Part shown: positions 42,185 through 43,788 of the stretch, piece by piece | How the letters are laid out: each line of letters starts with the position of its first letter | Position numbering within the stretch: the first letter of the stretch is position 1 | Source of the DNA: an uncultured Flavobacteriales bacterium | GTDB lineage: Bacteria > Bacteroidota > Bacteroidia > Flavobacteriales > TMED113 | Assembly (NCBI GenBank): GCA_964435285.1 | Contig: CAYSYA010000002.1 | Location: 129,135-193,134, forward strand | Reading direction: 5' to 3' | DNA: 64,000 nt | Translations under genes and position numbers: made by a program | Notes under the pieces: model-generated | Told to the model about the DNA's origin: nothing | What the model saw: the letters and a program-made list of their open reading frames with translations, nothing else | Database searches by the model: none

Positions 42185-43788
42185 CTTACCCTAAGTTTTT
42201 TTCCAACTATCAAAATACTTTTTTCACCATTTTTTAAAATTTTTTTATTGAGTTTTATTAGTTTAGAAATTTCATTGTAGTCATTATAATATTGTAATGC
42301 AATTTTGCTTAATGAATCTCCTTTTTTAATTGTGTGATATTTTTTTGTTTGATTAAGATTGTTTTTTGGATAAGTAATATTTAATTCAATTCTTCTATCT
42401 CTAGTGTCATAATATTTTTGTTTTTTTGAGCCATATCCTTTCCAAGAAATATTTTTAACATCAAATCCTTTATTTTTTAAATATTCATATACTTTTCTAG
42501 CTCGGTTTTCAGAAATTTCTTGATTTACAAAATCACTACCTGTTCCTCCATCTGCATGACCCTGAATTTCAATTTTTATATTCTTATCAGAGGACAAAAA
42601 GTCAAATATTTCATTTAACCATTGTTTATCTTTAGTGGGAATGTTATCTCTTTCTTTTTCGAAATTTATATTACACTCTATTGATTTCACTCTAAATGTT
42701 ACACGTCTGTTTTTTGAAATTTCATCTTTTGTACATTTATTTTTTTTATCATCACAATAAATAATAGGTTGTGTTTCTCCATAGCCATAATAATTAATTT
42801 TTGTTGAATCTACACCAATTTTTATTAAATAATCATGAACTTTTTTTGCTCTTTTTTCTGATAGAATTTTATTTTTATTTTCATCTCCAACATGATCAGA
42901 GTGACCTTGAATTTCTATAGTTACTTCAGGTCTTTTCTTTAACATATTTCCATATTCATCTAAAAATGTAGATACTGATGGTTCTAAATCAAAACCTCCA
43001 CTTGGAAAAGGAAGATTAAGATCTAAAACTTCCATGGATTGGCTTACATATTTAATTGTATCATCTTTTCTCAGATCTTCGTAACATGGGCAAATTAATT
43101 CAGCTTTACTTTTTTCAATTTTATATTTTTCAATTGGTTCAAAATTGATAATTGCATCTTTTATTCTATCATATCCTTTCGACCAACTATCTGCACAGTC
43201 TTCCCAATAATGTAAACTTTGAAGAGTCGAAAATCCACAAAACTGTTTCAGTAATACAGCTGATATGTATCCTGATTGATGCCAACCGTTCCAACAATGT
43301 AAATATATAGGTCCTAGCTCATTATTATTTATTGCTTCATAAACCATTAAAAGTATAGAGTCTCTTGATTCTTTATCATTACCGCTTAATTGAAAATAAT
43401 CTAGTCTTTTGTTACCCTTTTCTACAAATCGAGGAGCAGTATTCCAATTTGTTTTGTATAAATAAACAATATTAGAGAAATCTTGTTCTAATAAGTTCTC
43501 AAGCCCGTCTTGAGGTAATGGGTTTTTATTTCCTCTTTTATTTTTTTTGTGATAATAATTATTTCCACCTCCTCTGTAAGCTACTCCGTGAAGAATGGAT
43601 CTAAAATTTCTGGTTCCGTATAAAATTTCTAAACCATTTCCTTTGTTATCAGTTGCTTTTTCAGTTACACAGTTAATTTCAAATTTTGATTTATAATAAT
43701 TTATTTTTTCTTCAAATGATTTATTTTTTTCTTGGCTAAAAATAAATATTGGTAGGATTAGAATTGGAATAATTTTGTTTAATTTCAC
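42181..43788 (-). CDS. Exported protein: atypical PTP/DSP-fold domain + two OmpA-like C-terminal domains + LysM
   Basis: GTG start, signal peptide; GPIYLHCWNGWHQSG; two IEIQGH.D...SE.RA..V..YL...GYG...RR units; HTIKKGDSLSKIA LysM. Confidence 0.85.
   Translation of the reverse strand: MKLNKIIPILILPIFIFSQEKNKSFEEKINYYKSKFEINCVTEKATDNKGNGLEILYGTRNFRSILHGVAYRGGGNNYYHKKNKRGNKNPLPQDGLENLLEQDFSNIVYLYKTNWNTAPRFVEKGNKRLDYFQLSGNDKESRDSILLMVYEAINNNELGPIYLHCWNGWHQSGYISAVLLKQFCGFSTLQSLHYWEDCADSWSKGYDRIKDAIINFEPIEKYKIEKSKAELICPCYEDLRKDDTIKYVSQSMEVLDLNLPFPSGGFDLEPSVSTFLDEYGNMLKKRPEVTIEIQGHSDHVGDENKNKILSEKRAKKVHDYLIKIGVDSTKINYYGYGETQPIIYCDDKKNKCTKDEISKNRRVTFRVKSIECNINFEKERDNIPTKDKQWLNEIFDFLSSDKNIKIEIQGHADGGTGSDFVNQEISENRARKVYEYLKNKGFDVKNISWKGYGSKKQKYYDTRDRRIELNITYPKNNLNQTKKYHTIKKGDSLSKIALQYYNDYNEISKLIKLNKKILKNGEKSILIVGKKLRVR

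Follow-up and report, generated by a model that had tools for sequence, protein, structure and literature searches.

An exported protein family with a predicted dual-specificity phosphatase fold lacks the CX5R arginine and is linked to CotH kinase-family proteins

The window analyzed here is a 64,000-nucleotide stretch of contig CAYSYA010000002.1 from an uncultured Flavobacteriales bacterium. On its reverse strand we found a gene for a modular protein whose stop codon overlaps by 4 nucleotides (ATGA) the start codon of a gene encoding a CotH kinase-family protein, and the features of both genes are collected in Table 1. In the 535-residue product of the first gene, the Pfam OmpA model PF00691 matched two stretches (121.8 bits against a cut-off of 27.2, E 1.5e-35) and the LysM model PF01476 matched residues 485-534 with 25 bits (cut-off 20.9, E 1.8e-05). 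Hydrophobic N-termini are found throughout the family of Arg-less domains to which this protein belongs, and some members also carry a lipobox Cys. As judged from its sequence, the window protein is therefore exported and tethered to peptidoglycan via its two OmpA-like domains and its LysM domain. The CotH partner matched the Pfam model PF08757 over positions 1-321 of 322 (133.2 bits, cut-off 23.8, E 1.9e-38), and no T9SS C-terminal domain was detected in it. Its residues K198, D236, D359, N363 and D382 are invariant among 6 CotH sequences, a pattern that would fit an active kinase. When this partner was used to search the PDB by sequence and by profile, only LysM proteins and no CotH entry came up.

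Table 1 Features of the phosphatase-like gene and its CotH partner in the window
Feature	Position	Strand	Basis
Complete gene (535 aa) with signal peptide, DSP-fold domain lacking the Arg, two OmpA-like domains, LysM	42181..43788	-	ORF list, translation
Sec-type signal peptide, residues 1-18, MKLNKIIPILILPIFIFS, without lipobox Cys	43735..43788	-	Sequence reading; putative cleavage site
DSP/PFA-DSP-fold domain (predicted), residues 20-250, unannotated family	43039..43731	-	AF2, VIA-align, Foldseek
P-loop HCWNGWHQSG, H164-G173	43270..43299	-	Sequence, conservation, profile alignment
T-R-N-F-R-S with R60 and R63, start of strand 1	43597..43614	-	Family conservation
KQFCG, Gln182 and Cys184, end of P-loop helix	43234..43248	-	Conservation; AF2 helix
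LICPC, Cys233	43084..43098	-	Conservation
OmpA-like peptidoglycan-binding domain 1, residues 261-365, GHSD...NRRV	42694..43008	-	Pfam PF00691; NCBIfam OmpA-type models
OmpA-like peptidoglycan-binding domain 2, residues 375-469, GHAD...DRRIE	42382..42666	-	Second PF00691 stretch; motifs located
LysM domain, residues 484-534	42187..42339	-	Pfam PF01476
ATGA overlap: TGA stop of phosphatase-like gene, ATG start of CotH gene	42181..42184	-	Sequence
CotH kinase-family partner, exported, 603 aa, signal peptide	40373..42184	-	Pfam CotH

The sequence-only reading of this DNA had pointed out a P-loop-like motif, HCWNGWHQSG, in which the Arg of CX5R is replaced by Gln. The motif is indeed present on the minus strand, where the codons CAT TGT TGG AAC GGT TGG CAT CAA TCA GGA encode H164-C165-W166-N167-G168-W169-H170-Q171-S172-G173. 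It is unchanged in 120 out of 120 close homologs and in 80 of the 81 locus ORFs. Over 222 family sequences, with identity going down to ~30%, the individual positions are conserved at 93-100% (H 99%, C 98%, W 95%, N 96%, G 100%, W 93% and H 98%), so that homologs hardly vary at C, W, N, G, W and H, and the family consensus reads H-C-W-N-G-W-H-x-[S/A/T]-G. The motif is thus not a product of chance. The Cys and the His at Cys+5 are moreover coupled: among the 222 sequences both are kept in 217, both are gone in 4, the Cys alone is gone in 1 and the His alone in none. The W-N-G-W rim is retained even in the members that have lost Cys and His, which indicates that the rim has a role independent of the nucleophile.

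The Cys+6 position, occupied by Gln in the window protein, varies freely. Q accounts for 123 of the 222 sequences and A for 84, followed by E, S, M, P, N and T, and Ala is the most frequent residue among the diverse cluster representatives. Arg or Lys was found there in only two members, both of which already lack the Cys. A CAA or CAG codon, one transition away from Arg, is present at this position in 75 of 80 species loci. Because the position is variable, with Q or A, and Arg is one transition away, Gln is not a functional stand-in for Arg, and the idea of a Gln-for-Arg replacement had to be abandoned. Arg and Lys appear to be excluded at Cys+6. In profile alignments the Arg of PFA-DSP1/At1g05000 and that of PTPMT1 fall on Q171 or on the family's Ala, and Siw14 likewise matches the loop region. 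In this register Gln171 sits at the CX5R Arg site, His170 lines up with the His that serves PFA-DSPs as general base, and Cys165, preceded by a His where PTP/DSP enzymes have His or Val, would be the nucleophile.

An exhaustive search led to the identification of 307 cluster representatives (clusters at 50% identity). The family spans 379 species genomes, belonging to Flavobacteriales, Chitinophagales, Ignavibacteria, Kapabacteria and others, and is mostly found in the FCB group. The Arg has been missing since the family arose, while the Cys, both His and the loop rank among the most conserved positions. No Pfam or NCBIfam model covers the DSP-fold domain. Sub-threshold matches to Y_phosphatase2 (PF03162) were obtained for only 6 of 37 members, with 16.9-18.3 bits against a cut-off of 27 (16.9 for the window protein), and the NCBIfam model for the Blh sulfur transferase/dioxygenase matched one member only, with an E of 0.0017 that lies below any cut-off. 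The string HCWNGWH occurs in no paper of the literature searched. The family is thus undescribed in Pfam, in NCBIfam and in the searched literature. A stand-alone form without an adjoining CotH makes up 67 of 95 representatives, and no recurrent neighbor of this form was found at the loci examined. The genes seen next to it encode Sortilin/GEVED, ABC-F and VWA-OmpA proteins, a CHASE histidine kinase, a DUF1643 protein and an SDR.

The AlphaFold2 (AF2) model of residues 20-250 (pLDDT 91.5, pTM 0.91) predicts that the domain has the fold of a dual-specificity phosphatase. In this model a strand at model residues 142-146 (I-Y-L-H-C) leads into the loop and a helix at model residues 151-165 (H170 to C184) follows it, as had been proposed for a loop set between a beta strand and a helix. 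With VIA-align the model matched Siw14 (6byf) with a Z of 13.7 and an rmsd of 3.2 A over 155 residues, VHZ with a Z of 13.3, and TpbA with a Z of 12.8 over 152 residues. Altogether 46 chains reached a Z of at least 8, and the top 50 shown are almost all Cys-phosphatases or PTP-fold relatives; among the top Foldseek matches listed, all are. The PTP/DSP-like fold suggested from the sequence is therefore supported by the AF2 model and by structure comparison. No chain of the rhodanese fold, which has a six-residue Cys loop, appears among the fold matches listed, a listing that does not exclude this family, and the loop has the length of a PTP loop. In PTP/DSP enzymes the general acid is an Asp on a loop about 30 residues ahead of the Cys. 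An alignment of 37 domain sequences shows no conserved Asp or Glu that might play this part in the stretch from Y131 to the helix preceding the P-loop strand.

Outside the loop, R60 and R63 are conserved at 94-95% over the 222 sequences and are partly lost in Cys-less members. One or the other may be a candidate phosphate ligand that replaces the P-loop Arg in trans. Gln182 and Cys184 are conserved at 100% over the same sequences and Cys233, the first Cys of LICPC, at 99%. Nearby Cys residues had been taken to suggest redox or disulfide control. This holds up in part, as the Cys of QFCG (C184) and the first Cys of LICPC (C233) are conserved, but neither the Cys of EDCAD nor the second one of CPC is, most members having N/T-D-G in place of EDCAD; the latter two were rejected as redox partners on this ground. 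With only C184 and C233 kept, the case for redox control is weakened, and since the protein is exported, Cys184 and Cys233 more likely form a structural disulfide, which we regard as probable from their conservation.

The association with CotH extends beyond the window. The CotH gene lies 0-4 nucleotides downstream in 20 of 25 OmpA-fused loci, and single-chain fusions of the type CotH-LTD-domain-LysM account for 9 of the 95 cluster representatives. In a census seeded from the protein P0191, the same fusion was found in 38 of the 39 clusters around it. All CotH fusions retain HCWNGWH, and the N-terminus is hydrophobic in each of the 8 fusion proteins in which it was inspected. On a quick tree, midpoint-rooted for drawing only, the fusion clade and the operon clade stand apart. 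A word-index search for longer proteins seeded with the window domain gave no match because the fusions are too distant. In genomes with a stand-alone copy, CotH was found elsewhere in 5 out of 5, which is weak evidence given that CotH kinases occur in ~41% of the sampled Bacteroidota (82/201). The literature searched describes no dedicated phosphatase-fold partner of CotH, and queries combining CotH with phosphatase, OmpA, Bacteroidetes or secreted found nothing relevant. To our knowledge, CotH kinases have no known function outside Bacillus spores and no known substrate outside Bacillus spore coats.

We favor, with about equal weight for and against it, the explanation that the DSP-fold domain is a Cys/His enzyme working with CotH at the peptidoglycan. 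The domain would act as the partner of the CotH kinase with which it is co-translated. A group cradled by the backbone amides from Trp166 to Trp169 would come under attack by Cys165, and His170 would then assist hydrolysis of the covalent intermediate. The net result would be that a mark set by CotH on a target near the peptidoglycan is removed or turned over. Three parts of this picture are inferred, namely catalysis by the domain, a group that is phosphoryl or a less charged relative, and a target at the wall. The joint retention of Cys and Cys+5 His, the near-invariant loop, the predicted fold, the linkage to CotH and the export signals are all consistent with an enzyme. PFA-DSPs have the signature HCxxGxHR, use His155 as general base and likewise lack the canonical WPD acid (PMC13573052). 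Against an enzyme, the P-loop Arg is required for phosphate binding and for the transition state in every characterized Cys-based phosphatase, and Arg220 mutants of Siw14 are near-dead (PMC13573052). By the usual rule, loss of the Arg would predict a pseudoenzyme; in addition, a conserved general acid is absent, 67 of 95 representatives have no adjoining CotH, and a kinase acting outside the cytoplasm would need a supply of ATP there.

An alternative reading is that the domain is a pseudophosphatase, which would catalyze no reaction but dock or regulate CotH, or hold its substrate at the peptidoglycan, with the loop serving as a binding surface contacted through the two Trp and the Asn. A Cys-phosphatase is by convention called dead once its CX5R Arg is gone, and both the missing general acid and a W-N-G-W rim that outlasts Cys and His fit such a role. 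Being permanently fused to CotH and wall-binding modules would also suit an adaptor. The OCA-clade PFA-DSPs and many animal pseudophosphatases are partners or regulators of active enzymes (PMC13573052). A binding module needs no unpaired Cys, yet this residue is 98% conserved in an exported protein, and the coupled loss of Cys and Cys+5 His (217, 4, 1 and 0, as above) is unneeded for pure binding. Catalytic positions normally drift in pseudoenzymes, but here they form the most conserved segment of the domain. We consider a pseudophosphatase possible but doubtful. The more specific suggestion of a phospho-reader has lost ground, since the family has held on to its nucleophile and given up the phosphate clamp, the reverse of the STYX type; STYX-like phospho-readers keep the Arg and lose the Cys, and a reader of this kind was rejected on that opposite pattern.

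A non-phosphate Cys chemistry on the PTP scaffold is, in our estimation, unlikely. Examples would be the transfer of sulfur or a persulfide, the sensing of thiol redox state, and the cleavage of a wall group (acyl, sulfate or glycan-linked), and the loop amides would then cradle a less charged group. In its favor, rhodanese loops without Arg transfer sulfur. Arg and Lys are seemingly excluded at Cys+6 although one mutational step away, the Trp, Asn and Trp that replace the basic rim of PFA-DSPs would be typical of sugar or aromatic sites, and the fused OmpA-like and LysM domains bind peptidoglycan or glycan. The weak Blh match could also be cited, but it concerns a single member and falls below any cut-off. 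Sulfur-metabolism or redox genes are not recurrent nearby, and the one genetic partner that recurs belongs to a kinase family, a sign of phosphate chemistry; the nearest folds and the HCxxGxH set also belong to phosphoanhydride phosphatases. As for a recent, lineage-specific loss, with a phosphatase decaying in the source genome only, nothing speaks for it beyond the absence of the Arg in this copy. Homologs that mostly carry Arg would have pointed to such a loss, but no Cys-bearing member examined does, across 379 species genomes, and the ORF is intact with a loop under strong purifying selection. The family-wide absence of the Arg led us to discard a recent loss, to which we leave practically no chance.

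Returning to the Cys/His enzyme, its furthest-reaching form would make the family a novel class of catalyst built on the PTP scaffold, which dispenses with and selects against the CX5R Arg and constitutes, together with the secreted CotH, an extracytoplasmic, peptidoglycan-anchored write/erase system. We put this forward only tentatively, as a proposal that may well prove wrong; in it, the mark might be on a glycan or a wall component rather than on a protein. The CX5R Arg is regarded as a residue that no Cys-based phosphatase can do without, and proteins lacking it are routinely declared dead. If the domain is active, the Arg rule needs revision, with a new mechanism or substrate class, and if it is inactive the family would be an unusually strongly conserved bacterial pseudophosphatase. 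Either way, the operon and fusion link provides what is, in the literature searched, the first candidate for a dedicated partner of bacterial CotH kinases. This link places the pair at the peptidoglycan and makes phosphorylation outside the cytoplasm directly testable.

Among known systems, the PFA-DSP/Siw14 group (Y_phosphatase2; AtPFA-DSP1, 7MOK/1XRI; ScSiw14, 6BYF) is the nearest structural match and also provides the top, but weak, matches at the sequence level. The two have H-C-x-x-G-x-H in common, including the Cys+5 His, and both are without the canonical WPD acid, whereas the R of the signature is missing from our family. PFA-DSPs carry an N-terminal motif, N-F-x-x-[VI]...Y-R-[SG]-G, which we found in the family and in a canonical DSP. 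Where PFA-DSPs have a basic K/R/K rim at Cys+1, +2 and +4, the family shows W (95%), N (96%) and W (93%). Unlike PFA-DSPs, members of the family are exported, probably disulfide-bearing, ~70 residues longer, bacterial (FCB group) and fused to OmpA, LysM or CotH. The catalytic cleft of PFA-DSPs is highly basic (PMC13573052). Arg-less PFA-DSP-like proteins that keep the Cys are found in the OCA clade and in trypanosomatids (for example ScOca6, HCTNGELI), and their predicted role is that of inactive partners to active enzymes (PMC13573052). They share with our family the PFA-DSP fold, the retained Cys and the missing Arg, but these cytosolic, eukaryotic proteins have in addition lost the Cys+5 His or further residues of the loop, which is not strongly conserved among them, whereas H-C-W-N-G-W-H is nearly invariant in our family, with Cys and His coupled.

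As in STYX, a DSP fold is combined with the replacement of one catalytic residue, and STYX is a binding or regulatory module. In that protein the Cys is lost, the Arg is kept and phosphate is still clamped. TpbA of Pseudomonas aeruginosa (4R0S/4R0T) is, like the window protein, an exported bacterial protein of closely similar fold. Its site of action is the periplasm, where the OmpA-like lipoprotein YfiB belongs to the same system. TpbA differs in having a canonical CX5R loop and being active, and in having neither a CotH link nor a wall-binding fusion. It sets a precedent for extracytoplasmic phosphatase chemistry. Finally, compared with the CotH of the Bacillus spore coat (PF08757), the partner protein matches the full model but is exported and belongs to a Gram-negative bacterium.

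The minus strand at 43270-43299 codes for H164-C165-W166-N167-G168-W169-H170-Q171-S172-G173, the P-loop-like motif of a domain in a 535-aa exported protein. Pfam Y_phosphatase2 scored this domain at 16.9 bits, below its cut-off of 27, and no model covered it in any of the 37 diverse family members on which Pfam and NCBIfam were run. The motif was likewise absent from the papers covered by our literature search. For the Rieske oxygenase gene listed below, the scanned ORFs included no reductase or ferredoxin gene.

Features of the gene encoding the 535-aa protein and of its neighbours in the window
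Feature	Position	Strand	Description
Whole ORF	42181..43788	minus	535 aa, GTG start
Signal peptide	N-terminus of 535-aa protein	minus	hydrophobic, without lipobox Cys
Domain of ~230 residues	after signal peptide	minus	unrecognised by curated models
Two OmpA-like peptidoglycan-binding domains	after ~230-residue domain	minus	PF00691, 1.5e-35
LysM domain	C-terminus of 535-aa protein	minus	
CotH gene	40373..42184	minus	603 aa, exported, PF08757 1.9e-38 over full model length
Second CotH gene	45859-48171	plus	770 aa, CotH 5e-38 and lamin-tail domain; GPGGG-type glycine repeats within CotH region; 2 kb upstream, opposite strand
T9SS cargo protein	37882-40359	plus	825 aa, Por_Secre_tail, Kazal-type inhibitor-like domain; directly downstream of CotH gene, opposite strand
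Rieske / ring-hydroxylating oxygenase alpha-subunit gene	36556-37626	plus	6 nt after TPR protein gene

To model the domain, residues 20-250 were submitted to AlphaFold2 with an alignment of 34 homologs (pLDDT 91.5, pTM 0.91). In the model a strand, I-Y-L-H-C, leads into the motif, which is followed by a helix of 15 residues, bearing out the sequence-only reading, which had placed a PTP-type P-loop between a strand and a helix. The top Foldseek matches listed against the PDB were all Cys-phosphatases or PTP-fold relatives (CDC14, TpbA, Siw14, AtPFA-DSP1, PIR1, VHZ). An independent all-against-all structural aligner gave Siw14 (Z 13.7, rmsd 3.2 A, 155 residues), VHZ (Z 13.3) and TpbA (Z 12.8), and the 50 entries listed were Cys-phosphatases or PTP-fold relatives almost throughout. 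At the sequence level phmmer made a weak link, in register, pairing HCkrGkHRTG of At1g05000/PFA-DSP1 with HCWNGWHQSG. The domain-only family profile matched PTPMT1 (E 0.0039), PFA-DSP1, Siw14 and TpbA, and in the two profile alignments displayed the variable site of the family pairs with the Arg of PTPMT1 and PFA-DSP1. These comparisons show that the predicted fold is PTP/DSP-like and set the register of the loop.

A word-indexed search retrieved 419 homologs of the domain, an exhaustive HMMER search 307 cluster representatives at 50% identity, and a species-genome scan placed the family in 379 genomes. The hosts are chiefly uncultured marine Flavobacteriales, Chitinophagales/Saprospirales, Ignavibacteria, Kapabacteria and Chloroherpeton, with a few MAGs carrying other labels. 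The family is rare: a sample of 200 genomes from the phylum yielded a single weak match. This match (genome G040, L082:644-1195 (+)) is an ordinary exported 183-aa DSP with a canonical HCWHGSDRTG loop; it carries an LYRSGQP motif, shares the Trp at Cys+1 with the family and is the nearest Arg-bearing relative met in that sample.

Conservation of the loop was analyzed in 222 sequences spanning the domain, with identity down to ~30%. Every position but one is nearly fixed (H 99%, C 98%, W 95%, N 96%, G 100%, W 93%, H 98%, x, S 95%, G 99%). The exception is Cys+6, the position of the CX5R Arg, which is occupied by Q (123), A (84), then E, S, M, P, N and T; Ala is the commonest residue among diverse representatives, so the Gln is not conserved as a substitute for the Arg. 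Arg and Lys occur once each, exclusively in members already devoid of the Cys. A recent loss of function is thus excluded, the Arg being missing from every Cys-bearing member examined. In 80 species loci the Cys+6 codon is CAA in 40 and CAG in 35, either of which is one transition from an Arg codon. The failure to observe so easy a reversion speaks for selection against positive charge at this position. Of note, the second Trp, at Cys+4, is replaced by Arg in two homologs, P0222 and P0220 (HCWNGRHQSG, HCWSGRHSSG), which could offer another way of placing positive charge on the rim of the pocket.

The Cys and the His at Cys+5 are coupled: both are kept in 217 sequences and both lost in 4, the Cys alone is lost in 1 and the His alone in none. 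In P0053, a 528-aa metagenomic homolog made of two domain copies in tandem, the first copy lacks both residues (HGYNGWIETG) and the second is intact, an arrangement reminiscent of receptor PTPs, with their pairing of an active and an inactive domain in tandem; three further representatives are also tandems. Elsewhere in the domain, conservation extends to an R-N-F-R motif (R60, R63; 94-95%), Y71-R72-G-G, Y109, Y111, Y131, Q182, C184 and C233. Cys-less members retain R60, R63 and Y111 only in part, a hint that these residues line the active site, and R60 or R63 could be a candidate donor of a guanidinium group in trans. C184 and C233 probably form a structural disulfide, as expected in an exported protein. 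The Cys of EDCAD, earlier proposed as a control residue, is not conserved in the family. An extra Cys pair (NLC...xC) without counterpart in the window's protein occurs in many members, and in several stand-alone ones the signal peptide ends with a lipobox-like Cys (e.g. ...LSVGC, ...LISCG).

The stop codon of the 535-aa gene overlaps the start of the CotH gene (ATGA), and in 20 of the 25 OmpA-fused loci a CotH gene lies directly downstream on the same strand, 0-4 nt apart. In the domain tree a separate clade (SH-aLRT 98) carries the domain within one chain of 1,060-1,200 aa, which runs from the signal peptide through CotH and, in many cases, a lamin-tail domain to the family domain and LysM. 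Among clusters around one fusion protein, P0191, CotH was found in 38/39 and HCWNGWH[Q/M]SG is kept in all; signal peptides were present in all 8 fusion proteins whose N-termini were displayed. The occurrence of the link in two clades and two physical forms is strong evidence of a shared function. The majority of representatives (67/95) are a stand-alone form of ~250 aa, and no conserved neighbour of their genes was found in the loci examined. CotH is encoded elsewhere in all 5 tested genomes with a stand-alone copy, which adds little because CotH is present in 41% of the phylum sample. A divergent second CotH gene also lies ~2-2.5 kb upstream in loci L002 and L004, and the 1.57-Mb genome of the window has 4 CotH matches in all.

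We favour a working Cys/His enzyme that would act with CotH at peptidoglycan, and give this reading an even chance. The main rival, a pseudophosphatase serving to dock or regulate CotH, is possible but rather unlikely; it is what the usual rule for loss of the Arg predicts and has a precedent in the OCA clade, and it accounts for the Trp-Asn-Trp rim, which is retained even in Cys-less members and so has a part in binding or structure that does not hinge on the Cys. A pure binding module, however, poorly explains an unpaired Cys that is 98% conserved in an exported protein, within the most conserved segment of the domain, and that, one sequence apart, never disappears unless the general-base His does too. 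Other Cys chemistry on a non-phosphate substrate (sulfur transfer, for instance, or the cleavage of a group linked to a glycan) is less probable still and finds no support in gene context. For a working enzyme, the absence of the Arg as well as of the basic rim suggests either that the substrate is less negatively charged than the dianion of a phosphomonoester or that another part of the chain supplies an Arg.

Among known systems PFA-DSPs are the closest structurally and the most similar in working set. A review of inositol-pyrophosphate phosphatases gives HCxxGxHR as their signature and names the second His (His155 of AtPFA-DSP1) as the general base that activates water in place of a WPD loop; it adds that Siw14 lacks the canonical general acid (PMC13573052). 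The family retains the whole HCxxGxH set without the Arg and likewise has no conserved acidic residue upstream in the domain alignment, but differs from PFA-DSPs in failing the Pfam cut-off and in lacking the basic cleft, the basic rim at Cys+1, +2 and +4 being replaced by Trp, Asn and Trp. Compared with STYX-type pseudophosphatases it shows the reverse pattern. By location the nearest bacterial analogue is the periplasmic TpbA, which is canonical whereas the family is not.
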